From: Phoronis australis
Lineage: Eukaryota > Animalia > Phoronida
Reading direction: 5' to 3'
Assembly: GCA_002633005.1 (NCBI GenBank)
Contig: NMRA01000448.1
Location: forward strand, 62,001 to 126,000
Length of the DNA: 64,000 nucleotides
Shown: in pieces, positions 1,515-63,721 of the stretch
How positions within the stretch are numbered: position 1 is the stretch's first letter
Layout: each line of letters opens with the position of its first letter
The notes under the pieces: generated by a model
Databases searched by the model: none
Told to the model about the DNA's origin: nothing
The model's input: only the letters and a program-made list of their open reading frames with translations
Translations under genes and position numbers: made by a program

Positions 1515-4500
1515 ACCAACTCTGACTCGGGATCAATCGAAAGCTACTTTTGTGCTCTCATTTCTCTATAGAGCGCCAATATGAAAAGTTCCCTATTGAA
1601 TATGAATTCCCGCGGTTGTACTGAATTGTGAGTACATTTGGGACATCCTGTGTATTGTTATACAGCCACGTACCTAAATCTTCATATTGGTACATGAGAA
1701 ATACAGTTTTCGTGTATGAACCCTGTCTGCTCGTGCCGTAGCTAAGATCCTGGTTATAACTGGAGATATACTAATTGTTATCCTTGGCGTACTCGTGAGT
1801 AACTTATACATGTGGGTCGTGAAAACACCTCCACCACTCAGTAACAAAACGGAAATGTAAAGGTTATAGGAATTAGGTGACCGTCAGAAATTAGTACATA
1901 TGTTAGTCAAGGGCCCAATCATTGGCGGAACTCTTTCTTACCGTTGGTTTATTGTTTGTAAAAATATTTCAATATGAGCATTTATTGTAAAACAAGGAAG
2001 CGTATCATGCATTGTGCATATAATGTGTTCTACAGAAAATTAGTCTTGTTCTATTCATCGATTATTTTGTTTTATTCCAATAACCGGTAAAATACTATAC
2101 AAATTGTGATACATAGGACCTGAAATACAGAACTCCGTAAGATAGATACACGGAAAATTAACTCAAAAGAGCATGAAATTTTGACACTGAAATTTTGTCA
2201 TAACCTTATGATAGTGATGGGATCATGTTCATCTCAAGTTCTAGCGGTTGCAACGAGGGTTGTCTTAAAACGGTCATACGCTATTTAACAGGCGACTGGC
2301 ACAAATGTAACTATTTCAATTGTCTGTGTGTACACAAAATTTTGTTTGTCTTAAACTCGGCAAGCGTATCTTTAACTATAATTGCACGACAGTGTTTTCA
2401 CAACTTCGTACAATAAGAGTCCAGGCGTTACATAAATCAAACACTCACTCAGCCATAACTTAATCGAACTAATTGGTGGTTGATATTTACCCACGCTATC
2501 CAACACAGTTCGTTCATTATTTCAAAAATCCAGACCTATTTTTCTCTTGCGTCGCTATGTGACAATCACGTGATGTGGAATCAATGATCAAGTGCGTGAT
2601 AGCATCTGTAACCAGTGAGGCAATGTTCCGAAGGTTCATTTGCTTTCTAAGTCATAGTCCATCGATTTTTCACTTAAAAAGTGTGTCTGCCATTAAAAAA
2701 TAAAACGGCTTTCGTTTCTACTTGATCGTCATTTTCTGATTTCATTGCGTTAGAAATATATGTGCAGAATCCACATTTTACGGTATTGACTGCGGGTACG
2801 TTGTAATTTTGTACCGCAGGGTGCATTGCCTAATAGCAGGCATAACAGCGACACCTTTCGATCGGTTGTTGAGCTACAAGACTGCCAGTAAATCCTTTGC
2901 TCCAACCATTAAATCGTGGGTTGCATTCCGTCGACTCAGCTGGATCAACCAGCACTCTGGTACCCGCGTTAAATAATAATCCACCACTGGTACCATGTAC
3001 GCTGACGAGAATTCTAATTAGCGGATTTTGGCGTGGTCGACTTCGACATGATAAGACCCTGGCAAATGGATGGTGTATTTTTATTCTTGGATCAGAGACC
3101 CCTGTCCGTCCATTACCCAAACGAAAATATTTCCCTTAGAAACATCAATGGTCTCCGAAGAACAGTTTTTGGAAGTCAAAAAATCCATCAGGCTTAAAAA
3201 ATGCGTAAGGGGATTTCACTTGCAGTAAACTATTGCATTAAAATGTTTTCTAGTGTAAATATATTCTGAGTAGTCTTATTGGAAAATAAGAAAGAAAATG
3301 GGATCGTTTCATATCATGAACCTGGAGGCTGTTAACTTCATTTTGAAAAACTAGCCGATTTTAAAAAATGGCTCTTATGTCCGAGGCTATTCATTTGTCA
3401 CCGATGGGATGTTTCCAGCGGTAACAGGTGATTTATACCCGAGTTCGATGCTCGCGCGTAATTCTCTGTTTTCCTTAAAGGCCTAATATGGTGCCAAAAT
3501 GACTATTTTTATATCTAAAATACGTATTTTGATGAAAAACACCAACACACGGTGTCCTAGCATACCCCACTCATTACCCCACTCATTAATTAAGTAGGCT
3601 TTTTACAATACACCAGCCCCATCAGGAACCTCATTTAGCGCCAAAAAACTTGAGATGGTGCTTGCACCAATCGAAGTCTATGACATCATCGTTACAACGA
3701 ATTTGCCTTTCACCGTGTTGCCATTGTATTGGAAACAGCCATGACTGGCAGTTTAATTTAGTGCAAAATACGTGGAAAATCGGGGAAATACATTAATTGT
3801 TCATTTCATGTCAATTCATATTAAGATTGATCAAAATCATAACCTTTAGAATTTTTTATTCAATTATTTAGCACATATTCCCGCATGGGAGTCCCCAGGA
3901 GGGTGACTGGGGTCGCCGAAACAGTCGGAAAAAACGCTTCGTCTAAATAGTTATCAGTAAATTTTCACAATGTTTATTATAAAGTGTAGTTTGCTTGATA
4001 CAAAAACTTTCATGTTAGGAGCTTTGCATTCATGTCTTCTTGAAGCCGAAGGTGTGAACGCAGCGCGATTCCAATCCGAGCCGCTGTCGAGTGTGTATCC
4101 CGTACTGGAATCGGCGACAATAGGCCGTTTAATTTGGTGCAAAATACGTGAACGTTACAACACATATTAGCTTGATCTTTTCGTACAAAGCAATTATGTT
4201 CAAGTTCATCGAAAAATTTATATTAGAAACTTAATTTTCAAAATAATTCGTCTTGAAATCATGCAAACCCGTAGTCGCCTCCATTTTGACTTGGTCAACC
4301 TCAAAATTTTGAAAACACAACGTTGCGAGTTTCTGTAATAAATTAAAACTATGAAGCAAAGTCTGGATTGCATAAAAACATACCGAATTATAAAGATATG
4401 TAATCAACTGAACGTTTTAAATTCAATCAAAAATAAATTCCGATATGGGACGCCAGTATCAGAATTCCGTTAGGCCTACGGGAACGACCCAAATCAAAAT

Positions 4501-4799: not shown

Positions 4800-5230
4800 T
4801 AATAAACGTCATTTTCTACCATAATTTTCCGCCTTTTGAGTTTTGTAACAAAGAAAGTCTGTCGCCATTTTGAAAGTAGTACACTCGTGACACGCGCACG
4901 CGCCGTCCCAAGACATCTCTTGGGACAAGATGACAGCTTCGCAGCAGCGCAGTTTGATCTAAAACTCGGTTTGCTAGTCTTAAAAATGGTAAAAACTTGT
5001 AAAGAAATCAAACCAGATCCGACAATTTGTTGTGACATGCCTACATAACCTCGTGGCAGCAAAGAACAGCTGATAGAGGAATAAACGGGGGAAAAGAAAC
5101 TGTCCAGGTCAGGTGACGTAATCGTCGAAAGCCGACTCACAAGAGAGCACTTCAATTTCAGCAGTAGATGAGCGGCAGAACGCCAATTTTTCCAACACGG
5201 CTAAATAATTTGGTTTACTCGAAGAAGAAC
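4800..5230 (+). pseudogene. Decayed THAP-like coding segment, homologous to 44390-44700 (minus)
   Basis: FYHNFP..RH..DDSF..LKLGLLVLKMVKTCKEIKPDPTICCD, with clear nucleotide similarity to the 44.4-44.7 kb copy. Confidence 0.55.
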
Positions 5231-16900: not shown

Positions 16901-17163
16901 GTGAACACTGCTTCTTTCAATTTCAGACGAACTGATGAATTTGTAGGAATGAATAACATTGTGTATTCAAAATCTAACTGTGGTAACCTAGAGTTGATGC
17001 AATTTGTATTAGTCTCCAAATACGAAACAGCCTCCGCGTAAATGACATGAATTTCCCATACGCAAGTCATTCCTACTTAAAAGTAGAATTCGTCGTTCAT
17101 TTCATTTCTTCTGCATGAAAATGAATTGCAAAAATGCGTTCTAAACTAAACTAACAGACATAC

Positions 17164-19065
17164 CTGCAGAATTAAGATGTTCCCCTGCAAGACCAGACGG
17201 TTGCCATGGAATCGGTGACATTGTAGTGGATGATTTGAGTACGCCATCTCGGTCCTCCTTGTTTTCAAATTCGTCCGAATTCTCGTGCTCGACTTCCGAC
17301 TCTTCCACAATCGTTTCATGTTCGATACTGCCGCGGCCGTGCGAATAGCCAGCTTGTGTAGGTGCATTCATGGCCGTGCTATACAGCAAGTTATCCAAAC
17401 GTTTCAGCGGCGGATCGAATACCACGCGGGTTTTAGAAACATTATCGTCTGCGAGTATGGCTGACTGGTCAACATCTTTTATGTATTCAGATCTCCGGCT
17501 GATTTCACGCACTTCGTAATTACTACCGTCCTCCTCAAGGGAAGATAAACTCTCTTTTCCACTCAAGAAATGATTTTCTTTCAACTGGGCGGCCCTTGGC
17601 AGTCCGAACTGCGCTGCTCTTTTAGCGGATCGAACGCTGAGAATCTCACATTGAATGCCAACGTCGTGCTGCCACGGAAACCTCGCGGGCTCCTGCAGCC
17701 CGGTTATATCGTATTTACGCAAAATCTCTCTGGTCACCTGCACACTACCTACCGAAAAGTCCACCACACTCCCGTTGTGATCGTCTGCTGAATCACTAAG
17801 CACAGTGGACATAGATCGGTTTGATCTGTCGTCTGCTTCCTGAAGACTGCCCTCAAAGGGCGACTTATTGCCACCACTTCCCTTATGAGAAGGCTTATCT
17901 TCGTGGGTCATTTTATAAAAATTGTTGTTTACATTCCGCGTTCCGTTGTCCAAGTAGCCTCCTTTGCCAGCTCCGCTGCGCATTTTTCTTCTGGACAGCA
18001 TCTCTGCGGTCATGTTTTGTTGCGAGTTTGCTATTTTGTCATCAACACTTGTCAAACCAGATAATTCGCTTGACAAGCCCTTTGATCGAATAACTGCTTG
18101 ATTGAAGTCGTTATGGTTATGATCTCGTCCAATCTCATACCTACTATCGTCGAAGGATAATTCGTGAATTGTTAAATTAGCAACGTCGTCTACTGGATAG
18201 TCCGTCACTTCTGTTGCGGCTTCGTTGAAATCTGACTCGTCCGTTTGTGAACTAGCAATCGAAATTTTATGAGATTTTCTTTTGCTGTCCGTCGAAGATC
18301 TCGATGTCAACTGACTGCTTGTGCTACTGTTTGAGGCCTGTGATAACTTTCTCTCATCGATTTGCTGGTTATCGCTTTGATTCGATTGACTATTAACGTA
18401 TGCTTCAATGTGATTTGATTGATTGAGACAGCCAGATGAAAACGTCACGTGGTAATCGAAGTCGTCATTGTATCCATAACTGGCATAATCTTCAACCGAG
18501 AAATTGTCTTTAGTAGAAGAATCGCTGTTTTTTCTGACATTTGCGTTACTTATGTATGGCAGTCCTTGCCTTCTTTGTTTTTGAACAATGTCTTCCTTGT
18601 GATTATCGTTACCACTAAATTTTCTCCTTGTTTCTACGGAGTCACGATATCCATTTGATAGTGTTGAGAATTCGCTGTCATAAGAATATATGTCCCGTGT
18701 TCTCTCGCGCTCTGATTCTCTTGAAGTGCCATCGTTCCTTTCACTTTTGCTTATTTTTTTCCGTGGTATCGGGACGGGTTTATTTTCTGATGACGGCTGA
18801 ATGGCACCGACTTTACGACTTCCGTTGACGTCGCTGTCTCCCAAACTGGCGGATTGTGGTGGTCTTGTAGTCGAAATCTTATGACCGTAGCTTTTGTCAC
18901 TTCCGGCTGGTGAAGATTTTCGCGAAGATAGCTCAGACTGACTGTTAATAACCCTTACTATTTCCGTTTGCGTGTCGTCATTTTCATCTTCCTGGGAAGT
19001 GGCTAATTTGAAAACATCGTCATCATAAAAGTCGGTCGTTCGAGTCTTTTCCTTTGTGTATGATC
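17164..19065 (-). CDS. Large internal coding exon (634 codons, phase 1-1) of an unidentified Ser/Asp/Asn-rich intrinsically disordered protein
   Basis: Lies within the 667-aa ORF, by far the longest in the window. Acceptor atatttacag|GA at 19065 and donor GCAG|gtatgt at 17164. Length 1902 nt is frame-preserving. Confidence 0.85.
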
Positions 19066-19556
19066 CTGTAAATATCGCCATAATTAAATGCAATGGAAAT
19101 GGGAATGATGATAATTTACAAAATATCCAATGTGTATTTGACACTATTTTGGTAGATGGTGTTTTTTAAAAAAATGCTCCCCAGCGTACGGGTATTTGGA
19201 CAAAAATTACATCATTAACATGGGGGCATTCCACATGATGGAACAACATTGGATCAGAGGAGTTTTCAATAAAATGTGACTCTCAGACGGAAGTCTCATG
19301 GAACTCATATATTACTTACCGCTTTCTACCTGTACTTAATCATTCCTAAGGGAGGTATGACACACTCAAGTTGTGCAAGCAATGATATGATGAACAAAAA
19401 ATATGAACAGTTGAAAGATGAATACAGAATATTGATTTTGTACATTAAACGATACCATACCTAGACCTAATCAGTCATGTTAGAAGTTTATGTCTATCTA
19501 ATTAATTTTCAGAGACTATTATTTTCGAAATCTCTTGACAGTTCCAGAAAGAAATA

Positions 19557-25291: not shown

Positions 25292-27831
25292 TTAAGAGTT
25301 GCTGGGACTATCTGGTCCAATACATCTAAAAATAACAAGAGCCCGTTCACGGAAGACTTTAAGTCAGCCCTCCCTCTCTCACTGCCGTTTTCACCTCCAG
25401 CGCCCCCCCCGCACGTCACCACCACTTAGGATACCGGTATTCACAACTTTCACCATGCATCTTCTAGTCTTTACCTATTTCGCCTTTGAAGCTACAAATT
25501 ATTAAAGGCATATGATAACCCTCCCCCACCTGCCCTTGGGAAACGTCAACTTAAGTCGGACTAGGATTAAAAATTAAAACCCTAGAATCAAATTGAACTT
25601 GATAATACAAAAAAAAGATTCTTTGTGTACTAATCATCCCGTCAGGCGGTCGCAGTTTGCTTTAGTATAATTAGCCGTTGCTGAATCTAACAATGCAAGA
25701 TTACGTACACAGTACTTGTATCAAATACTTATCGAACCCATGTTATGACTTCTAAAGTCTCTTCGAACGTTTTGATGTGCCTTGCTCATGTTCGTTCAAC
25801 GTCTATTTTTATCACTTAAATCGTAACACAGGTTATGTAAAAATCTTTTCAAGATGATGTGGCTTTTTCGATGCAGTCTGCTGCATGTGTGATTAAACGC
25901 TATCAAGCACTCAAGCGCCTTTGTCGCGTGTGTGAATGGTAAAACCGCCTAAGCTTAGAAAAATGTTAGTGCACTTTCCTTTAAATACACGTACAAAGGT
26001 ACAAAAGGCGATTAACTGAACTGATCGCAGGCGCAAGCCGCAGTCGGGTCGAAATCGCAGGTGCTGAGTTGTGTCAACCCGTGCTTCGTTGACTGCGTCT
26101 GAATAGGTTCGGTAAAAAGAGAAAAGTTTCACTCGGATTGTATACTTAAAACGACGAAAATCTCAGTGAACTCACCGTTCTTACTGAATTGACCACGACA
26201 AGTCAAACCCTGTATAATTTTCCTTCGTGCTATCAATCTGCTAAGATGCAGTAAAGCTTTCTTGTGTTATTAACTGTAATTTATGTCAAAATATGGCTTA
26301 GAAGGGAGTTATTAAATTTGAAGATTCAATTTTACTGGGAAAGTCTACAATTCGAGTGATGTCCTTTGTGAAATTTCCCCTAAGTGCTGTGGATATCGGC
26401 ACTCGAAGGAAAATTCTGGGTAAAATGTGCTTTGTAATGAATACGACCAGTGTTGTGATGATTTCAGATAGCAAACGTAACTAAATTCAGCGAAATGGTA
26501 TATGCGGTCAATTTGCCAGTGTCATTGTTGAATATACTGCCCGACCATGTCCTGCTGTCAAATATGACTTTCTTAACAGGCCTGTTTGTTTTGAGTAACG
26601 TATTGGTGTTCATATCATTTGCCTGGATTAACATTTGTTGCAATAAAACACCGGGAATTCCCCTGTCGGTCACACTGTTTCGACGACTGAAACTAATCGG
26701 CCGTGACAAAAAATAACTTCAAGGGCCTGTTCTGAAACAAGAACGAGTTGCCTAATAAGTGGCTTGTATGAAAACTTAGTAAATCATTTAAATTAGTTCG
26801 TTGGCAACTAGCACGTGCTCTAATGCTTTATTGCTTATATTGTGGTCCCACTTTAAATACAGTTTCAGTACTTACTTACTTTAACTGAAAATATTTATCA
26901 GAGTAAGAATCTTTTTATTACGATAAGCAGACTAAATCAAGTATTGTTTTTGGAGGAAGATGCGGATCTCTTTCCTTAAGAATCTTCGGTGGATATACAC
27001 CTCATGGAATCGTACCATTCACGTTCACGTGGCTGTTGAAGAAGCACAGTTTAACACGTAACAGGTGACACGTGCTGGAGGTCATTGTCTCGTAAAATTG
27101 TAATGAATCATGTCGAAGAGGGCACGGAATGGGTTTTACTAATTGTCGGTCGTAGAATGTGATGTGTAATTATTTAACTTAGAACATTTCAGGTTTCATC
27201 GCCCTAGAGCAGTAACATGTCGGATTGCGGAGACTGTTTACTCTATTCTGATCAGACGTGCACCACACAAAATGTACAGGTATGTCCTAAGGCCTAAAAG
27301 TTATACGACACCAGCATGAAATAACTACGCAACAAATTTTCTCACCCACAGAAAGAAATAACTACACATACCTTTGTATGCTAGATATGAATGTGGAATC
27401 CTTTTTAAACCATCACGGTGAATTTACTCCATGGATCTATCTAGACGAGTGCTTGACAATCGGGCCATCAGGCAACAGTATTTAATGACTACACGATCTC
27501 ACCAAGCACGGTTTTGAATGACTACAGAATGCTTCTGAACACCCCCGTGCAATAAAGGTTCCGTTTCTATTGCTTTTCAGCTGCGTTATACATACATGTT
27601 ATCGTTTCAGCGAACAAACGTTAGTAAATATGCGCCGTGTACATAAACAATTTTGTCAATGCCGATTCGACTATACACGTATGGGGCCAGTTTTTTATGT
27701 GGGTTAGATAACCGATTTATTCACGAAACATGTTATATTGTCCCTCAGTTATAACTTCAAGCATAATTTTGGTATCGGATACATAATTCACGCGTAATCA
27801 CCATCAGGAACACCTCCCTCGGCTATTTGCG

Positions 27832-27993
27832 TAGCCTCAAATTTCCCTTCGGAGGTGAACGTTATTTTGCGCACGTGCGGACTTCAGTTGTACGGCAAGT
27901 CATGTGACTTTCTAACTGGAGAACGCTTGGCCACATGACTTAAGTTTGCACATGCGCTTATAACATTCATCTCCGAAGGGAAATTTGAGACTA
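27832..27993. mobile_element. 162-bp foldback MITE with TAG..CTA termini (Academ-like)
   Basis: tagcctcaaatttcccttcggaggtgaacgttat.. vs ..ataacattcatctccgaagggaaatttgagacta, about 55-bp arms. A related end starts at 28033. Confidence 0.75.
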
Positions 27994-30900
27994 AGAAAAA
28001 ACCTTGGTCTAACTTCTCCTCAGTTTTGTAACTAGTTTCAAATTTCCATTTCTGTGAGATGTGTGTAACGTGCGTATTTGAAGCGCTTTTTGTGTCATCG
28101 CGTTTCTATGGAGTATAATTTTGAGATCGGATATGTAGTTCACGGGTCATCAATTGATTAAATTTCATTTGCTCATTGAGCAGTAATCATTTTAAAGGAT
28201 TATTACCTCAAGAGTATTATGTTGAAATGGTCCACAATAATGCATATATAAAGTTTCACACGGTAGTCTCGTTGTTATTTCAATGGCAGAACACACTGTT
28301 GACGTCATCGACGGGTATTCAGTGGCACCCGGATAAAATTTCACCTGCATTTCTGGTCAGAGTTAATCTTTTGGAATTGATTTTAGAGAAAGTACAAGCC
28401 TTTTCCACGAAATACAAATGTGTCAAGCGCACTTTGCGACACCAACGTGCTCGGAAAACATGGCGCTTCCTACAGATGTTGACAAAACACCATGACCGAC
28501 ATACATACCGACACACAAACACAATGGTTGTAAACGTGCACAGTCAAAACAGTATCACTGACCAGTAGACATCTCGAAACGTTGATTTTCAAGCTCCGAA
28601 TCGCTAAGCGGTCATCCTCGGAGAATCGTTTCCATACAAATGTGGGCTCAGATACTGGTAGTTGCCGAATCAACTTGAGAAATGCACGAGAGCAATTTTA
28701 TTAATTAGGAAAATTGTTTTACCCTTAGAGACGCTTCAGAACTGTTGACACGAGAGTCATAATACCACAACTGCGGGAACCCTTTATGTGACAAATGGAA
28801 AGTCCGAATTTAGGGAAATTAACGAGTCATCTGTTGGAAGCGCGGACAATAAATGTCAGGCAGTTGGACAATGCGTTATCACGCATGGTCACCAAGTGGT
28901 CCACTTTACAATTTCTGGCGTCCCACTACATGTGTTGTTCATAAAGAAAGAAACGTGGCATGGCATGAAAAACATGTTAAATGCGTTTTGATCATTTTAG
29001 GTTTCATATTGACAAGTGACTGTACTCAGCACAACTAAAATGACCTGCGCAGTTGATCTATCGCATTTAACGGTTCAGTGTGATGATCATCAGACAGGGG
29101 GAGCCACACGATCACTCATGGGTCAAACTGGTTAGTGTTAATCATATGGGCACGGTCGCCCATAATTCGCTTGCAGACCCAGATAGATAACCCTAGTATT
29201 CACTTTATGCACGTGTGCTAACGTTGGGTTGTCTTTTACCCGTTCTTTGCAAACTTCTTTTCAATCAACGTTAAAAGAAAATTAGACTATGATTTAACCT
29301 CGTACCATATCCTAAAAGTCGTTAGAACACTTAAATATTTGCAGGAAAATGCTCTGTAACCGTAGTCAACAGTTTGGAATGATTTCCTTGCTAAACACGC
29401 GATCGTGATCAACGTTTCGGGCGAGATGATCGACAGCTGCGGGTAAAGACCATTGATCACGACTAAAAGCACAGAATGACGATCGTATTGCAACTTGAAT
29501 CTCTCGCAGGCTAGCTCTGACCGAAGCAGTTTTGGGTCAATGAAATCATAAAGGTGGGTTAGTTCCTTTTAAATTGAATGCAGGACAACTTTTCTCATTT
29601 TTTAGGGGATACTCGCTATTTCAAAACATGTCTCACCGTAGCTATTGCTCATGTAAGCACAAATGCCTTTACTTCCGCAGATAGGCGTGTGGCCCAAATA
29701 CACACAGATATGGTTGCCAATGTTAATTAATTCATCAAAATGAGGCCACAGTCTGATGACCCCGGCGTGTCATGTTTATGTTTAGAAAGTGAAAGCTAAA
29801 CGCATACACTGTTTTTGTTGAGTTGCCCTTTCTTCATATAACACAAAAGATAAGAAGATTTATATTGGTCTTGTTTTGTGAGCGATCAGTAAATATAACG
29901 AGGTAGTGTATTTTGTTGTGTTGGAATTGTTAGACTTAGAAGTCTAATTTGAAATGATGTTGACTCAAAGTGCAAAATTGTACGCTTTGACAGTATGGGG
30001 ACGCCGGATGATGGAACCCCCTTTGAAAAAGGATCGATCGACAATCAGTATCACACGCATATGTTGTGAGTAACCCCTGTCCTCCCCCAACCTCTTCCCC
30101 TCCGTTCCTCCTTGCCTAATTCGTCATCTACGCATGCGCTGTGGTGAATCGTTAAAGGGGTAATAAACCGGCGCATTCTGTTAAGGAAACGGCTTTTGAT
30201 TTATGCCACTTATGGTTGTAAAATCGATCTCCTCTTGCTCCTTACTGGAATAAGAAATGATTTCTACAGATATTTATTGTTTCAGAGCAGACCCGTTATG
30301 TTGCTTGTCGCGATGGGTTAGTTGGAGTGGCCCAGGTAATATGTCCATCTGGGAAATTCCAGGCATTTTATTCCAACCAATTCCAATTCAGAACGCGATA
30401 ATGTTATTAACGCAGGAACATGATTTAGAGCCACTTTAACTAAAAAGTGCACTGTGCTGCTACTTTAAACAGGGCTTTGTTGAAAACAGTGTTCAGTTTC
30501 GCTACACAGTCAATAGAACATTACAGACAACCAAGCAATGCCTGGCGAAAGGAAAATAACCTGAAATGCTCACGTCATCTTAGTGTGAGTTTTCGATGAC
30601 CGTCAACAGACGGCGAACACAAAATACATGAAAACTTCTGTTTGACTGCGTGTCAAAAGTCAATAACACATTTATGTTGCTCTCGACTTCGTTTTTAATT
30701 TAGACAGGATGACCGGGCAGTCCTTTCATCTCAGAACATCAGATGTGTTTTTGATTTTCACAGTAGAATGTGAGAGATGTTTATAGCAAATTGGGAATAG
30801 CAAAATCTGCGATAAAATCACGTCACGTTGCCATATATCATTGTTCCTTTGAAATAAACCGCAAAAAGTGTAGAATGGGTCTTTATCTGCTTCTTTTTTA

Positions 30901-44180: not shown

Positions 44181-45421
44181 CAGGGCGTTCCATCGATACG
44201 GGAACCCCGGTTAAAACAGATACCCCGCAATCGAAAACAGACTCCCGCACCTTCAAACAGCTAACCAGCCCGAAAAAACACGAATCCCAGCCTTTAAAAC
44301 AGGAACCTTGGGGATCTGACAGGACACCCGGGGACCGAAACACCACTCCCGCACATACTGTCCAACACTGTTTGGTGAAAAATAAATCTTCCTTCTTGAA
44401 ATAGTTGTTGTCATGCGTTACTTTACTATATGAGAATTTTAGACAACTTACGACGGATTTGCGTTCTACGCAATTCTGCTGCTAAGTTGTGGTGCGATCT
44501 CATGCGTCGGCTTTCGTCGCCACGAAATATTGCGTCACCTATTGGTCATTTTCTTTTTCCCCCCAATGCTTCAACCAACTGTAATTCTTCCACGAGGTTG
44601 TTTACATTGATGTCACAACAAATTATCGGAAGTGGTTTCATGTCGTTACAAAGTTTTTAGTATTTTAATACCAGTAAACCGAGTTTCAGGACACATTTGG
44701 AAGCAGTATTCCGTCAAGAAAGAGCGTGAATGCGCTGAGTTCAGAAACTCCGTTTCTACATTCCGTTTTAATGATTGACGAGCACTTGGAGTACACTTTT
44801 TTGAGGCCAAGAACTGTGAAATTGGTGAAAGTGCAGGTCTTTTGAGTGAATAATTCTCGCGGTCCATTTCAAAATGCGGAAATTGATTGCTGGAGGAAAT
44901 ATTGTACTCTTGACGAGTAAATCGACGAACCCTAAAATGTGCCCAGCTTTAAAGTAATTTAAAAGCATTAATCAACAATGGCACGGAAAGTCGAAATAAC
45001 ATTTTTGTTGTCCATTTTTGAACATAGTTTTGGAGAAACTATTGAATAATCTGAAATTAACTAAATATTCACCGAGATGACATCGTGTTGAGAGTATAGA
45101 TTATGTTGAAATTCGCCCACAGATATGTTGCACGAGTTTTACAATATAATATAAGTTCCGTTTTATTACTGACAATGTTTAACAAACAAATGCAGAAAAC
45201 AACAGAAAAGTACTTGAAGATGCTTCAAGGCTACTGACAACGGTCTCAGAAATTTTGAAAAATTGTCCGGTTGCTCGGCTATCCGATCCGTGGGGTTCCT
45301 GTTTTAAAGGTCAGGCTTTGTGTTTTTCGGGCTGGTTGGCTGTTTTGAAGCAACGAGAGTCTGTTCTCGACTCCGGGATATCTGTTTTACACCGGGGTTT
45401 CTCTTTCGATGTAACATCCTG
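44181..45421. mobile_element. Non-autonomous DNA transposon with CAGG termini, about 130-bp TIRs, a 5-bp TSD (ACCTG) and an internal THAP remnant; hAT5-like
   Basis: cagggcgttccatcga.. vs ..tcgatgtaacatcctg. Arms 44181-44310 and 45290-45421. ACCTG at 44176-80 and 45422-26. Minus-strand KDLHFHQF..HSRSFLTEYCF..MKPLPIICCD. Confidence 0.75.
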
Positions 45422-48400: not shown

Positions 48401-49640
48401 CATAGTAACATTTCATCATCGACAAGGCTACAGGTCAACCACAGTTTACCGTGAAATTCTATTTTTTCGTGCCTACCCACATCCACTTGAAACTATGGAT
48501 GGAACAACGAATACCGAGTAAGTGCTCGAATGTACAGAAGTAATGCGGTAACGAGAACTATGACGATTATACGTTCAAAGTGATACAGTCTTAAAAGTAC
48601 AGTGGTGTTTTGTATAATACTCAACGTCTCGCTTGTGGCACAGTCTTTGCGAGAAGACGTGTAAAAACAAGACTTTCTGGAAATCTACTCTTCAAAGCAA
48701 AGTAATGGTAAAAACATCTTCATTTTAAAGAAAGAAGACCAAGTAGAAAAGTGTGAAAGCTCAAAATGCAGTAAACAGTTCTGTCTATCACGATGACTTA
48801 CAAGAGAAAAGAAATTTTCCCGCAACAGAAAAAGAAATTACAAACCTTTCTGGGTTTTCCACACAGAAAACAACGCTTTCCATTTCGCACCCGGCATCTT
48901 GTATCGCCCAAAGCTGAATGACGACTTAATCTAGTTACTTTAGTTAAAGTGAAGTCTTGTTTGCCCGCGACGGCATATGCAATACTCAGCACGATTGGCT
49001 TTGACCGTTCATTGCCTGACTCACAACATTTTTCAGGTAAAGTACACTATGGTGCATGATCTATAACAGCAAATCCAGGTCAGGAACATTGAATTTTCAC
49101 CAACGTATTTTGACCAATACAACTGGATGTGCGTATCCAAATTAGCGACCATTAAGCTATTTTTGTCCGAATTCTCCGTAACCAATTACTTTATCCTTTT
49201 CCGATTGCAGTTGCTGTCAATTGAAATACCTATGCGAACTGTTCTTTAAAGCAAGTGGCTTATATCAAGACATACTTGAGCCAGTTGGTAAAATGTGCAA
49301 AACACCTGGTCAAACGTGTTCAGTAATATCCTACGAATTGATGCATTGTTCCGAAGACAGACTCGTCTTGACTGATCCTATTCCGTTGGCAGCGTAGTGC
49401 TGCGCATGAATACAAAGTGGTCAATACCAATCCAACAGAACCGAAGGCGGTGTTACGTCATAAGATCTTTTCAGGTGAATTTGTCAGAAGATCATGTTTT
49501 CGTTTAATTCCAGCGACATGGCTTCTAAAATGTTACGTTTTGACACGCAGGTAGAATAAGAGAATCAAACAAAAATGACATACTGGGAAAAAAATACTGA
49601 ACTGTTATTTTAAACCCTAAATGCACACCAATAAAACGCC

Positions 49641-50196
49641 CGTGGTTAGCTGTCCTCGTTATATGTCGTCGTGCGCATCGAAGCATATATAAAATAAGGG
49701 AAAATGGACAATTACTGGTTTTATAGTTGATTAACAATCTCGTTTTCGGAAGAGGCAGTTTGTGCTTTAAAGTGGCATGGACCGCGAAAACTCGTGAAAA
49801 ATACGTTTTACACGATCCCTAACCAAAGTACCTTCCGTCAACCTTTACTAAAAAGTTATTCACTTCCCCCTGAGAAGGAATTTCCAGAAAAAATGACCCA
49901 ATTCATGATTTTTGAAAGAAGTACGAAGAAAAGCTTGTATGGTAACCACCTATACCTGCCTATCTTCCTTTCACTTATTATAAATGCGCGCATGCGCTCA
50001 GTCATTCGGCAAACGAACAGCTGATTCAGTGTCAAGAGTGTTGTGGAGTGAATACTTTGCCACCCNCGTGGTTAGCTGTCCTCGTTATATGTCGTCGTGC
50101 GCATCGAAGCATATATAAAATAAGGGAAAATGGACAATTACTGGTTTTATAATTGATTAACAATCTCGTTTTCGGAAGAGGCAATTTGTGCTTTAA
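49641..50196 (+). repeat. 130-bp direct duplication (49641-49770 and 50067-50196)
   Basis: Identical except for 2 substitutions. The second copy starts right after the N at 50066. Confidence 0.95.
49771..50065. mobile_element. Probable left end of a Kolobok-like element inserted at TTAA, ending at an N
   Basis: TTAA|AGTGGCATGGACCGCGAAAA.. begins exactly where the 130-bp duplicated flank ends. Confidence 0.55.
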
Positions 50197-53460: not shown

Positions 53461-53633
53461 GAAATTCAATATCCCGCAAAACGACGGTGGACAGGCGACG
53501 GCGGTGGACAGGCGACGGCGGTGGACAGGCGACGGCGATGGACAGGCGTTCAGCGCCACCTACAGATCCCATGTAATGCGGACGGGAAGTTTCAAAACCT
53601 ACTAATATACAAACGGCGTTTTAACACACTTTC
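53461..53633 (+). repeat. Dispersed repeat copy with an internal 17-bp minisatellite (GGTGGACAGGCGACGGC x3.7, 53486-53548)
   Basis: Direct reading of the sequence. Confidence 0.85.
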
Positions 53634-56455
53634 TGTATAATAACTTAGACGTCCACTACTGTGCGGTGGGGTGTACTAATGACTCACCCGTTAAGATTCA
53701 CTGCCCGACGCTAATCAAGACTTCGAATGTGATCGTCGAGAGAGACACTTGTCGATACAATCTGAACCCAGAGGACTGCTCATGGAAATTACATATGACT
53801 TTGCGCGGTGTAGGAATTCAAGAGGTGATCAGGACGTGGCGCTCAGAAGGGTCGTTTTTTACAACCAGTTTGCCTACGAAAGGGTGCCTTTTCCAACAAA
53901 ATTCCCCACAAAAAGATTCATTTCGGGACTCCACTAAAGGTTCCTTTCGTCAATGAATCTACAGATGCCATCTATAGGGTATTTTTAACTTTTTATGCGA
54001 AAGATGTACTTATTTTTGACAAAATGACATGTGTTCGTGTACTATTTCGTGTAAAAGTTCAGCTGTGCAAGAATACCTAGGTGAGGAAACCAGTAAGGTT
54101 TCTGGAGTGAAACCCTGGAACAGGGCGCTACATTCTTATGTTCAGTGGAAGAGTGGTCTACTTCCTCAGAGAGCAATGCCGAGTTTCACTAAAAGACTGA
54201 TCCAGAATGTTAACTACGCTTGTAGGTATTTACTTCTTTTTAAAAGCCTGCCTCCCGTTCAGTAACACTAAGACCTCGCTAAAAAGCAAGACTTCGCGAG
54301 ATTACGTGAGATATTGCCGTGTATTTCAAATAAGAACACGTGAATTTGACTAGGTTTTAGCTAGGTCCTGGCGTAGGTCCTAGCGTCTACTGAACGCACG
54401 CCTGGTCAAGTGTGTATGTTGGCCAGGCTATTATAAGTAGTGTTTCCAAACAAAAAAAGCAATGTCTTGTAATATGGATTATGATAAGTCCATTTTGGCT
54501 TCGGATAAATGTGTTTCATTTCTTCTGCTTCCAATAATATTTTTAGCGGATACGCGTAACATCGTCGATTTTTACAAGTTGTTCGTGAGTTCTAAGTGAG
54601 CCGACTCCTGGTCGAGCCGGTCTCGCCACCTGGTGAACGTGTATATAAGCGAAAAAGATGCAATAAATATCTCTAACATAATTAGCTATTCTGTCGCACA
54701 CTGGCAGCAACGAGAAATATGTGATGTGCAAAAATAGAGCAACATTGACTGAAAGTGGTAATCATAGCCATGTGTCTGGTAATACGTAAACATATTCCCA
54801 ACGTCTGTATTAATGTATTAACGTTGTGTTGGTAATAGCTGTTCAAATAAATATTCAATGTTGCGCGTCTTTACACATCTCTGATGCGTCTCCCGACTCT
54901 TAAAGTCCGCGACCCGCGCATTTTGACATTCTTTTTATTAAAAACATGAATTTAACCTAATGCGTCTGCAACCTTACAAGTTACATCAAGTGTTCTGCCT
55001 TTCGTCAGAAAACTAATAAAAGCATTTGTAACGTGAAGCCAGTGACGTCACCACCGCAACAAAACCCAAGGTTATAACTCAAGTTTATTACGCTTATCGC
55101 GTCATTAACACTCTACGCACAATGCCTCTTGTCTATAGTAACGGTACCAGCAGGTGGTAGATAAGTTTATGGAAGATCAAGATTGTAGGTTTCGTTTTAT
55201 AAAAGGTTTGCTTTTCAATTCACTGTTTTTTTCAGATATACTTTTAAACGCCGCGTACAATAAAGAATGAGGTTGAACCCGTGCCAAATAAGCCAATTTT
55301 TGGTATTTAACTGACAGTTCAATCAAATTATCAAATATTTGTTATTCACCTACAAAGTTTTCAACGATCTCATTGGCTAATATAACGTCACAAACTTGTC
55401 GGAATAAGTAACCGACAAAAATGGGCTCGCAAAATTTTCAGATTTTCTCTATTTGACAAAATTTCATGGGTCATAACTTCCGAATTAGATTTTATAGCCC
55501 AACTTTACAGGTTGCCTATTTTTTCTTGAGGAATAAAATTTGACGTATTGTCAGCTAATCACAATGGAGAACTATATTTGAAGCTCGTTTGGGTGCGATT
55601 CAAACTTATGAAGTTGCCAAAGTTGGTGCTGGGAAGACGGCAAAAGATCTTTGCAAATAAATGGATATTGGAAATAAAAGCTATCGTAAACGTCACTCAA
55701 TTACATGACCGTTTTTATTGAATTTTCATGAGCATCAGTAAATATAATACACCGCGTGGCCGCACATTTCTTCTTAAAAATCAAAGCAAACAAGGAAAAG
55801 ACGATTCTCTAAAAATCGTCAGTTAAATAATTCGAATTCAGTAACGTCGTGCGCTTTATCCAGCAGTATATACACTCACTCGTTTCTAACCATTTCTACA
55901 TGTAAATCAAATCAACTAAAACTATTTTACTAACTAATCAATGTTAATGCTTTCTTCCGCTCTTTCTGCTAAAGAGATTCCAACGACGAGGCAAGAGAGC
56001 TTTTATCAACCGTTGTTATTTGCAGAAGCTTTCGGTATATCTGTTAAGTTTAATAAGTTGTTTGACCTTCTGTTTTATTATATCAACAATACGTTATGTA
56101 ATTTATGTTTTTCTCATAAAAATGGTTACGCCTTGAAACTAGGCAAAACTGAGAGATTTGTCTCTGATATATACAACAGTAATGTGTTTCTAGATAAATG
56201 CATTTGTGGTAAAAATGAATTTCTTTACCATGTAACAAGGCCAGATATCACTCTGATATGCATACGTCATATGCATGTCATTCATTTACTGAACCAGAAC
56301 TGGGTTCCGCATACACAAGACATTAGCTTGCACTCGCTTGCAGCACATCTTCGCTTATGGAACGGAATCGGTGAATTTAATCCCACAATTCAACACTTAA
56401 ATCTCACCGACCAATCACTTCAGTGGCCACAATTTTGATGGCACTTGTAACCAAT

Positions 56456-60600: not shown

Positions 60601-60763
60601 AAAAACAACTGGTCCTGAAATTCGTAGACGCAATCTTGACCTGGGGTCGGTTCCAAAGACACGCAGGATTCTCGCAAGCTTTTTCGGTCAGAAAACCCTC
60701 TCTTATGGAATGGAAACTGTAAATTGTATCCAATAATTCAACACTGCAACATCACCTAGCAAT

Positions 60764-61350: not shown

Positions 61351-62055
61351 GAAGTCTTGTGTTGAGCGAGCTGCTCACGAGGGTGCGCCACACGCTTACG
61401 CTGGATCTGTTTCCATTGTGTTTCTCATTGTGTCCGTATTCCAAGTATAATTGTTAATTAGCACGCTGAGGGGGTTGTTATTTTTTGTGACCAGTTGTAA
61501 TTGTTAGTCTAGTCTCATCATATTTCTGCCTGAAAATGAGACATGAACAATCGTGAAATATAACCTTCTTTTATTTATCACTGCAATGTCTCTCCATTCT
61601 TGCCGACGAATATGACGTAAGTTCAAGAGAGCATTCATAAAGCAATAAATAGTCAGCACAGTGCCTAGGCCTACAGAAGGAGCTGGTGACAAACTAATGC
61701 GTTTTTGCGTTCATGCAACTCTCGTGTGTCACAATTTTCAATGCAATGCAAACACAGATTCTGAAACCTAATCCCAGAAACCTGAAGCATGTTGACTTGC
61801 TTGAGGGAAAGTTGGCCGATATTTCAGGGCCATTCTTATAAGGTCGGGTACAACCTCCTTAAAGCATTGCTGATCTAATATTGCAAAACCCTTCTAGCCG
61901 TTATATGTAAAAACTCTTCACATTTACACCTGGTTGTGATGCAGGTGACTTGCCTTGTTTATGTCAATTAAGTTTTCAAAATCAATGATATCTGCTATTC
62001 TACTTATTAAAATCTCTTGGTCTATTTACACCGACCTCTTGTCTATTTACACTGT

Positions 62056-62097
62056 CACGACGTTTCGGTCGGTTTATTCTCCGGCCACCGTCAAGTG
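62056..62097 (-). ncRNA. Second hammerhead copy with a mutated core
   Basis: cac-TTGACGG-t-ggccgg(agaataaa)ccgacc-GAAACGTC-gtg: stem I intact, two invariant core bases changed. Confidence 0.6.
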
Positions 62098-62155
62098 TTC
62101 CCGCGTTCTTAGAAGAACGAGCACGGATATGTGGTACACTCATGGTGTGATTTTT

Positions 62156-62238
62156 TGTCCGAGGCAGGACTTGAACCCACGACTTCTGAAACTACAGATA
62201 ATTCGAGTCCAGCGCCTTAATCACTACACCACGGTGTC
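62156..62238 (-). pseudogene. tRNA-Ser(CGA)-like SINE head (Pol III A and B boxes), not a functional tRNA
   Basis: GACACCGTGGTGTAGTGATTAAGGCGCTGGACTCGAA..GTGGGTTCAAGTCCTGCC has an A box, a CTCGAAT anticodon loop and a B box. The acceptor and anticodon stems do not pair properly. Confidence 0.75.
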
Positions 62239-62362
62239 ATCCATTTTTTTCCACTCGAATTACCTGTAGTTTTAGAAGTCGTGGGTTCAAATCCTGCCTA
62301 GGAAAAAAATCACACCATGAGTGTACCACATATCCGTGCAAGTTCTTCTAAGAACGCGGGAA

Positions 62363-62404
62363 CACCTGACGATGGCCGGAGAATAGACCGATCGAAACGT
62401 CTTG
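62363..62404 (+). ncRNA. Minimal type-I hammerhead ribozyme motif of the PLE-associated kind
   Basis: cac-CTGACGA-t-ggccgg(agaataga)ccgatc-GAAA-CG-TC: intact catalytic core with a palindromic ACGT in place of stem III. Stem I has a mismatch in this copy. Confidence 0.7.
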
Positions 62405-63070
62405 ACAATGTAAACAGAAAAGAGGTCGGTGTAAAAAGACCAAGATATTTTAATAAAAGGTGTAACACGCCACCACCTCAAAGCGGTTTTTAGAAAGTCA
62501 TTATGCTATTCTACTACTTCAGCTGCTTATTTGGTGAAGTTTGTACTTCGAGTGATACTAATGTGAAATCGTGACGTCTCCACAGGTAAAGGAGAATTTT
62601 TCGAACTTGAAATAATAATAACAATGGCAATGACAATGACAATGATTTTACGCTGAAATGTATCATGGTTTACGTTGACTATAAGTGTCTAATCCGTTGT
62701 TGCAGATTCAGAGAACACAATTGAGTTCAAACTCAAAATTTCGAATTCGAGTTTAAAAGAGATGATTTCTGAAATATCACACGACAGATTTTAAAGTGCT
62801 CCATGAAGCCGTCTTCCATTAACTTCTGATTTGATCCTACTAATGAAATCGGTCTCAAAATGACCGGCCTCATTAAAAATGGCAATATCTCGCGAAGACT
62901 TGCGTGGTCTTGCGTCTTCGCGAAATTCTTCAGTCTACCGAATGCAGCCCTGATTCCGGGCTCATAAAATGTTTTTCGACCATTAAACTGATCATACCCC
63001 TTTATACAGTCTCGATGCATTCCATATCTTGCTTGTAGATTGCAGTCCGAATTTTTCGTGCAATTTCACG

Positions 63071-63120
63071 ATGACTCTAAATCCCATGACTCTAAATCGC
63101 ATGACTCTAAATCGCATGAC
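63071..63120. repeat. 15-bp tandem repeat ATGACTCTAAATCGC x3.3
   Basis: Direct reading. Confidence 0.9.
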
Positions 63121-63721
63121 AAGACGTCGGCTTTTGGCATGCAACTCACTTGAAATAGCCATGAAAGTTTCCCCCATGCCAAATGACGTCGTATGGATGT
63201 CGCAAGCTATTGTTTAACTTGCCAGATCCATGCGACGGCCTAAGGGCGTCGCATGGTTATAGCCTATGGGGTACTACCATTGTTTTCATTTGTTTCGTTT
63301 TGTTGGCTCTCGGATGCAGGTCGCGCGGATATCGTATCTTGGGCACACATCAGCCGGTTACTGATAAATGTTAACCATAATCTTTATCATAAGAAAGAAA
63401 AACAAAGTGAACAATGGATACGCCTATCTATCGGTCTCTATGCGACGAGGATGCGACCGAGTTTCACACAGTGTATCTTAACATGTATAGCTGTTATTGC
63501 TTCATTTCCTGAGACCATATTAACACCAAGCCGTCGACTGGTACGTAGAAGTCATAAAATTTTAGTGAACGTGTTGATTGCGTTTTATTTTAGTTTCCTT
63601 GGGATGTAAAAGTTGTTCATCCGTAATAATTCACGGGTCAAGAGAAGTCCCAACCCTCTCACTGATATGTTAACTGGCTAATCAGTATGTAAATGATAAC
63701 GATAATATCAATTCAACTTAC

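Follow-up and report, generated by a model that had tools for sequence, protein, structure and literature searches.

What kind of element do the two arms lying head to head at 61993-62515 form, and which machinery put them there? The locus sits near the right end of the window, by which we mean the whole stretch of 64,000 nucleotides of Phoronis australis DNA that was analysed, and it reads in order as a 12-bp direct repeat, a minus arm, a plus arm and the repeat again. We think it probable that a Penelope-like element (PLE) mobilised this non-autonomous element, which has a tRNA head and is likely driven by Pol III. A preliminary description of the locus had proposed a non-autonomous element of PLE type, and the proposal was upheld: the family begins where the tRNA does, keeps its hammerhead, has two 3' ends and shows head-to-head junctions again and again.

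The minus arm (62005-62252, minus strand) has a full tRNA head, a body and a decayed hammerhead; it lacks the tail and breaks off about 9 nt before the first 3' end of the family. The plus arm (62253-62503, plus strand) is 5'-truncated at the anticodon loop and contains a B box (62284-62294), the body, a hammerhead, the first 3' end and the tail. Over 204 aligned columns the arms are 92% alike, differing by 16 substitutions (9 transitions and 7 transversions) and one indel. Alignment confirmed both the arms and the repeat, that is, two head-to-head copies within one 12-bp direct repeat as first described, the minus copy with its complete head and the plus copy cut at the anticodon loop. The repeat, a target-site duplication (TSD) of sequence TGCTATTCTACT, was found at 61993-62004 and 62504-62515 (plus strand) and nowhere else in the 64-kb window, and the last base of its left copy can also be read as the end of the minus arm. 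Comparable random segment pairs had an exact 12-mer in common in 7 of 20,000 cases.

The element is about 290 nt long in total. Its two arms share a pLTR-like body of about 153 nt (62313-62465, plus strand), the start of which is equivalent to 62147 in the minus arm, and the distal body carries an internal duplication with a 21-bp period (62020-62052, minus strand; 12-nt copies at 62020-62031 and 62041-62052). GG and an A-run precede the head at the head-to-head junction (62244-62252, minus strand) and are absent from most family copies. No palindrome or microhomology was found at that junction. Folding z-scores of the element parts were weak (-0.2 to -1.8), and a match to the Rfam model MIR8007 (63 bits; gathering threshold 195) was dismissed as an effect of the long hairpin.

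No second copy of the element was found elsewhere in the 64-kb window. To follow the family beyond it, public runs of the same organism were aligned to the element at 80% likeness, X1, X2 and X4 being DNA contigs and X5, X6 and X7 RNA reads. X1 may come from the very sample behind the window. The family was represented by 1,402 contigs in X1 and 222 in X4, and by 619 RNA reads in X5 and 511 in X6. In X1 most of the unique flank bins had a summed depth of about 30-50 (up to 160), against 3,000-106,000 in the arms, a measure of repetition and not of copy number. The element has the SINEBase feature of being short (<700 bp), non-autonomous and highly repeated. Head and body were found together within single contigs at other loci (X1, X4), and the whole 62095-62176 stretch was found in X1 and X2. 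Because single contigs at other loci carry both, the fusion of head and body is a family trait and not a chance neighbourhood. The right junction between element and TSD was likewise spanned by single contigs in two DNA samples (X1, X4); the left junction and the empty site were not found among the rows listed (15 of 57 joints).

The head itself is a degenerate tRNA-like sequence (62157-62238, minus strand) with a CGA loop, an A box at about 62220-62231 and a B box at 62167-62177. The tRNA-like head with A and B boxes that had been claimed stands, in degenerate form: both boxes are present and tRNA (RF00005) is the best Rfam match of 62150-62252, but at 17.3 bits (E 0.16) the match lies below the gathering threshold of 29. 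ARAGORN called no tRNA, either at its default or down to -ps80. The combined A and B box pattern, which was written after the site had been seen, matches only here in the 64 kb and in 0 of 60 shuffles. Weak as the Rfam match is, together with the boxes it gives the element the SINEBase feature of a Pol III-derived 5' head with internal promoter boxes. We tentatively take the head to be of tRNA-Ser origin from its CGA loop, presumably that of tRNA-Ser(CGA), and from a hairpin resembling a long variable arm.

Does this head drive the element, or is it a passenger? The alternative that survives best, though we consider it unlikely, is a non-autonomous PLE derivative made of captured DNA and a solo pLTR; its tRNA would be passive, and transcription would come from Pol II read-through or a pLTR promoter. 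PLE pLTRs are able to move unrelated DNA in trans (PMC3846280), the body of this family also follows other upstream sequences, nothing in the RNA reads points to a discrete small RNA, and depth is lower over the head than over the body. The tail contains a T-run, shorter in some copies, and 14 nt upstream of the first 3' end there is a T4 run, so that Pol III would have to read through. Against a passive tRNA, the family has its 5' end where the tRNA starts. Between 62239 and 62250 the RNA depth drops, from 32 to 5 in X5 and from 18 to 2 in X6, which indicates that the family begins at the tRNA 5' end. In addition, the family majority carries better A and B boxes than the local copy does, the majority letter accounting for more than 94% of X1 depth both at 62221 and at 62170. 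We regard a Pol III-driven element as the likelier reading of the head.

RNA reads were absent from the flanks, and the two strands were represented at similar levels overall, with a local strand excess at single loci. About 90% of the reads were under 95% alike to the local copy, and 82-83% continued into unrelated sequence. No common RNA starts or ends were listed in these standard paired RNA-seq data. The reads are most readily explained as host transcripts that contain other copies, and they are compatible with a Pol III RNA as well as with its absence. Among the transcribed copies is one in which the beginning of the body is internally duplicated in tandem (62320, 62140; 26 reads in X5 and 44 in X7). 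A strongly transcribed locus (X5 and X6; 44-62 reads, agreement 1.0) resembles 62354-62411, having the hammerhead region alone in common with the element, and has an altered hammerhead core and different flanks.

Various upstream sequences, including a probable endonuclease end, meet the body at its start (loose ends behind 62145-62148). In X6, 22-24 reads carried a different sequence joined to the body at 62147; on the minus strand its consensus translates as P-P-G-Y-N-V-S-stop and ends 5 nt before the body, where the tRNA would stand. Endonuclease domains in the supplement of PMC8557442 close with PYGLN (18), PLGLN (9) or PNGLN (1) or contain GYN (13). By comparison with these, the peptide looks like the C-terminal end of a GIY-YIG domain followed by its pLTR, a weak trace of an autonomous partner. 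This reading comes from one 30-letter consensus (agreement 0.64-0.67) in one RNA sample, and the motif was not among the loose ends listed for X1, X2 and X7. The motif was chosen after it had been seen; its chance over 48 loose ends and both strands is about 0.003, and it occurred in 0 of 200,000 30-mers of the window.

Other sequences stand at the same place. At 62147, 19 and 17 DNA contigs show a different upstream, an A-run followed by about 15 other letters, which is perhaps a second subfamily. Further upstreams joined to the body at 62145-62156 include an RNA locus that begins with letters like the end of a T arm and another containing CTGATGA. That several upstreams join the body at nearly one point suggests modular head swapping.

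A partner was also sought more widely. PGYN and the element motifs were absent from one supplement file of PMC8557442, and the family patterns yielded nothing in metagenome, viral and prokaryote-genome collections. The only match to the hammerhead pattern, on contig L001, was set aside: this is a GC-rich, bacterial-looking contig with only the core and part of stem II in common. At 1960-1994 (minus strand) L001 carries a hammerhead of its own, unrelated to ours and with a long stem III; it lies upstream of a gene and is followed by a 56-bp repeat that recurs at 517-572. PLE reverse transcriptase (RT) motifs gave nothing usable in viral contigs, and the contig that this motif search returned (L002) was rejected as a phage.

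Within the window, Pfam detected no RT or GIY-YIG domain in 123 of the 139 ORFs of at least 70 aa, the other 16 being of low complexity or overlapping a long ORF. A 674-codon open frame at 17141-19165 (minus strand) is serine- and charge-rich and probably a large exon; it had no Pfam match and no homologue in homologue searches. Several repeats accompany it in the window. Two inverted copies of about 128 bp (44181-44307 and 45294-45421), 81% alike, lie 1 kb from each other and could mark the termini of an old DNA transposon, and a 174-bp imperfect palindrome at 27826-27999 is MITE-like. A 135-bp direct repeat (49636-49770 and 50062-50196), 97% alike, has the window's single N near the start of its second copy and is possibly an assembly join. 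Old dispersed repeat pairs, 71-80% alike, lie at 4959-5187 and 44457-44689, at 946-1048 and 53531-53633, and at 56351-56415 and 60699-60763. About 0.6 kb to the right of the element are a 15-bp tandem repeat of 3.3 copies (63071-63120) and a hairpin with 21-bp arms (63221-63263).

The 3' side of the family is marked by two discrete ends. Loose ends before 62004 (68, 22, 56 and 29 records in X1, X4, X5 and X6) have 9 letters in common and then diverge, which places the first family 3' end at the equivalent of 62465. Those behind 62490 (22, 37 and 24 in X1, X5 and X6) have AGAAAGTCA in common before diverging, which places the second near 62500, and a smaller group extends about 10 letters further (2 contigs in X4 and 22 reads in X5). 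These break points were read from agreement between runs, the only agreement given being that of the overall consensus (0.48-0.67). The extra tail of 47 nt first attributed to the plus arm is thus made up differently, of 9 nt of ordinary family end and an optional tail of 35-38 nt (62466-62503, plus strand), AC-rich at its start, which lies between the two main ends. An AATAAA had also been counted as part of the element. It is a mutation private to the plus arm and was rejected as a poly(A) signal, the family reading T at 62457 (14,535 of 15,020 summed contig depth in X1; 1,742 of 1,776 in X4). A variant group at 62008-62010 (18 and 13 contigs in X1, 7 in X4) has a different terminal stretch of about 11 nt and is possibly a second subfamily or a related PLE.

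The two main ends are about 35 nt apart and non-repetitive, and no poly(A), simple-repeat or LINE-like tail was seen at the family ends among the loose ends of the public runs. What they produce is a one-sided tail of 30-40 nt from two 3' end positions. In PLEs the tail is tied to two internal reverse-transcription start sites (PMC11167929), and such a tail is a PLE signature (PMC11167929, PMC8557442).

We then asked how often the head-to-head arrangement occurs. At least eight joints from minus to plus arm were present among the 15 joints listed of 57, with arm lengths of 29 to 154 nt and no two alike; the remaining listed joints were four internal skips and three strand switches of indeterminate direction. 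Each of the eight was represented by one contig with 26-63 letters on its short side, and two of them also by 2-3 RNA reads. A further head-to-head junction was carried by 36 reads in X7. Depth at the locus's own junction was 369 (bin 62234-62264, X1). From the varied junctions and the low depth of this one, it follows that head-to-head pairs form repeatedly at insertion and that the palindrome is not an amplified MITE. PLE insertions show an inverted, 5'-truncated copy arrangement (PMC8557442, PMC3846280), and a solo inverted pLTR with a tail and an 8-10-bp TSD has been described (PMC3846280). Our family likewise has an inverted, 5'-truncated head-to-head copy with variable truncation, and the TSD encloses the whole unit.

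The two arms had been thought to have arrived in a single event, and this holds with a qualification. An identical 12-bp TSD beside an arm divergence of 7.8% has a probability of 0.38, and most of the 17 arm differences are private (4 to the minus arm and 10 to the plus arm), with 1 family polymorphism and 2 without a row. The polymorphism, shared at 62052/62408, accounts for 24% of depth. One insertion event followed by decay fits these data, but possibly with two template RNAs, since the difference at 62052/62408 is a family polymorphism. Fold-back self-priming was rejected for lack of a palindrome, and two separate priming events fit better because the junction has neither palindrome nor microhomology.

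The arm divergence of 7.8% and the one shared polymorphism would also suit an ordinary LINE-mobilised SINE with an acquired hammerhead, its arms being separate insertions or the product of an L1-type inversion. We consider this improbable. Both arms lie within one TSD, the 3' region of one recurs in the other, an outcome that an L1-type 5' inversion would not give, and the family has discrete 3' ends devoid of poly(A) or simple repeats and many other head-to-head junctions. A PLE-type insertion remains our preferred account of the locus.

The hammerhead points the same way. The plus arm contains a minimal type-I hammerhead (62363-62404, plus strand; core 62366-62372) with a predicted cut after 62401. 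It has a bulged U, a 6-bp stem II with one mismatch, GAAA, a palindromic ACGT and no loop III; stem I is 3 bp, and its first pair has been lost in the plus arm (62402). The reported CTGACGA core is intact there, but the minus-arm hammerhead (62056-62097, minus strand) is broken at C3 (62094) and A9 (62088). A minimal type-I descriptor, written after seeing the site, matched the window once, at 62366, the rate in shuffled sequence being 0.067 per 64 kb, and none of the Rfam hammerhead models matched the element. In X1 depth the family majority retains C3 (6,680 of 7,496) and A9 (3,752 of 4,106), both gone from the minus arm, and the closing G of stem I (1,863 of 2,547), gone from the plus arm. 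The loose-end consensus before 62095 has CTGACGA in four of four runs. Minimal hammerheads of PLEs have a bulged base after A9, a G-C pair opening a long stem II, a short stem I and a palindromic stem III without a loop (PMC4209133), and all these features recur in the element's hammerhead. Both local hammerheads are damaged, and we predict that activity of either is not likely; cofolding of two hammerhead copies did not yield the active dimer fold. At 62372-62386 an ATG coincides in part with A9 and the beginning of stem II; its frame stops after 4 codons, and the ORF of PAc starts at the same hammerhead position (PMC11167929).

A type-I hammerhead is also what a non-LTR retrozyme or an Sm-alpha-like satellite would carry, propagated as tandem arrays through self-cleaved circular RNA, and Sm-alpha too combines a tRNA-derived promoter with a hammerhead. 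We nevertheless hold this very improbable. The hammerhead here is of the minimal PLE type and not canonical (no loop III, and a stem I of 3 bp where the canonical form has a stem/loop III and a stem I of 6 bp), and the family 3' ends lie 64 and about 100 nt beyond the predicted cut, not at the cut. No head-to-tail joint was present among the 16 joints listed, in contigs that collapse arrays. The long inverted arms and the TSD would suit a MITE or a foldback DNA transposon whose terminal inverted repeats measure 204 bp, but this reading has next to no probability: MITE behaviour was not seen, with no fixed unit amplified with inverted repeats at both termini, the right end lying 47 nt beyond the inverted repeat, junction depth of 369 against 3,000-106,000 in the arms, and every other listed junction different.

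For the tRNA-headed, PLE-mobilised element we propose the following mechanism. A PLE protein would recognise the pLTR and tail RNA and cut AT-rich DNA on both strands, 12 nt apart, and each nick would prime reverse transcription from one or the other of two internal start sites. The tailed right arm would come from the distal site and its untailed left counterpart from the proximal one; the resulting cDNAs would be joined head to head, and repair would duplicate the 12-bp target. The hammerhead would be inherited pLTR cargo, probably dispensable for insertion, and both local copies would have decayed since. A PLE protein cuts and extends both DNA strands, and hammerhead mutants still insert (PMC11167929).

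Beyond the mechanism, we lean slightly towards a true Pol III SINE with a PLE partner, born when a tRNA-Ser gene replaced the ORF at the boundary between stop codon and pLTR. With the same slight leaning, the PLE would still be transcribed, and PLEs would form a third host class of Pol III parasites; the classes so far are LINEs for SINEs and LTR elements for TRIMp3 (PMC3531059, PMC10886601). SINEs are defined as LINE parasites (PMC3531059), and a tRNA-headed family using Penelope would widen that definition. If the reading is true, one tailed and one untailed arm record two-strand priming at two start sites, a step of PLE integration. It would also define how small an RNA can serve a PLE protein in trans, about 150 nt and the tail, and many SINEs of aquatic animals that are unknown or mis-filed, perhaps Sm-alpha among them, may have PLE partners. 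With thousands of short copies whose ends are readable, the origin of the inverted end and of the one-sided tail would be testable by counting, and the in vitro system of PMC11167929 offers a direct assay.

How does the element compare with known systems? What is new is likely the combination of known parts, a SINE-like 5' end with a 3' end like that of PLE insertions. No tRNA-headed, PLE-mobilised element was described in the full-text literature searched, a scope that lies outside subscription journals, Repbase and Dfam. With endonuclease-bearing PLEs (Penelope/Poseidon, Neptune and Hydra; PAc of Anolis; Pen2a and Pen3a of Adineta) the element has in common a minimal type-I hammerhead with a bulged base and a palindromic stem III, an inverted 5'-truncated head-to-head copy, a one-sided tail of 30-40 nt and a TSD near 10 bp (PMC3846280, PMC8557442, PMC11167929, PMC4209133). 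Unlike them it has no ORF, measures about 290 nt and bears a tRNA-derived head in place of the endonuclease end.

TRNA-derived SINEs, as characterised in SINEBase (PMC3531059), resemble the element in being under 700 bp, non-coding and highly repeated and in having a 5' tRNA-like head with A and B boxes. The element differs in lacking a simple-repeat or poly(A) tail, and its 3' part and insertion marks point to a PLE, whereas the SINE definition requires a partner LINE (PMC3531059). Because it lacks the simple-repeat tail of the SINEBase definition, we do not file the element as a SINE in the strict sense. Both the Sm-alpha and the Sj-alpha repeats of schistosomes likewise join a tRNA-derived promoter to a type-I hammerhead in a short, abundant repeat (PMC6765202, PMC2770079, PMC8490949). 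However, Sm-alpha is related to tRNA-Gln and has a canonical, active hammerhead in tandem repeats, and a PLE tail, inversion or partner is not reported in the sections of those papers considered here; in our element the hammerhead is minimal, the head has a CGA loop and the ends are of PLE type.

Non-coding relatives of PLEs form the other side of the comparison. MRC1 and Chlamys-N of Chlamydomonas (PMC8557442, PMC9977147) and the non-LTR retrozymes of animals (PMC7229834; bioRxiv 10.64898/2026.07.22.740005) are non-coding, contain PLE 3' or pLTR sequence and have a proposed or demonstrated dependence on PLE enzymes. A short non-autonomous Penelope has been described in Heliconius (PMC6685494). 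In contrast to our element, a tRNA or Pol III head is not described for MRC1, Chlamys-N or retrozymes in the sections considered, and retrozymes form head-to-tail arrays with mostly canonical hammerheads. The nearest parallel outside PLEs is TRIMp3 (Cassandra, Helenus and Ajax; PMC10886601), in which a Pol III small-RNA promoter likewise serves a non-autonomous retroelement that does not depend on LINEs. TRIMp3 depend on LTR retrotransposons, with LTRs, PBS and PPT, whereas the element described here appears to depend on a PLE.
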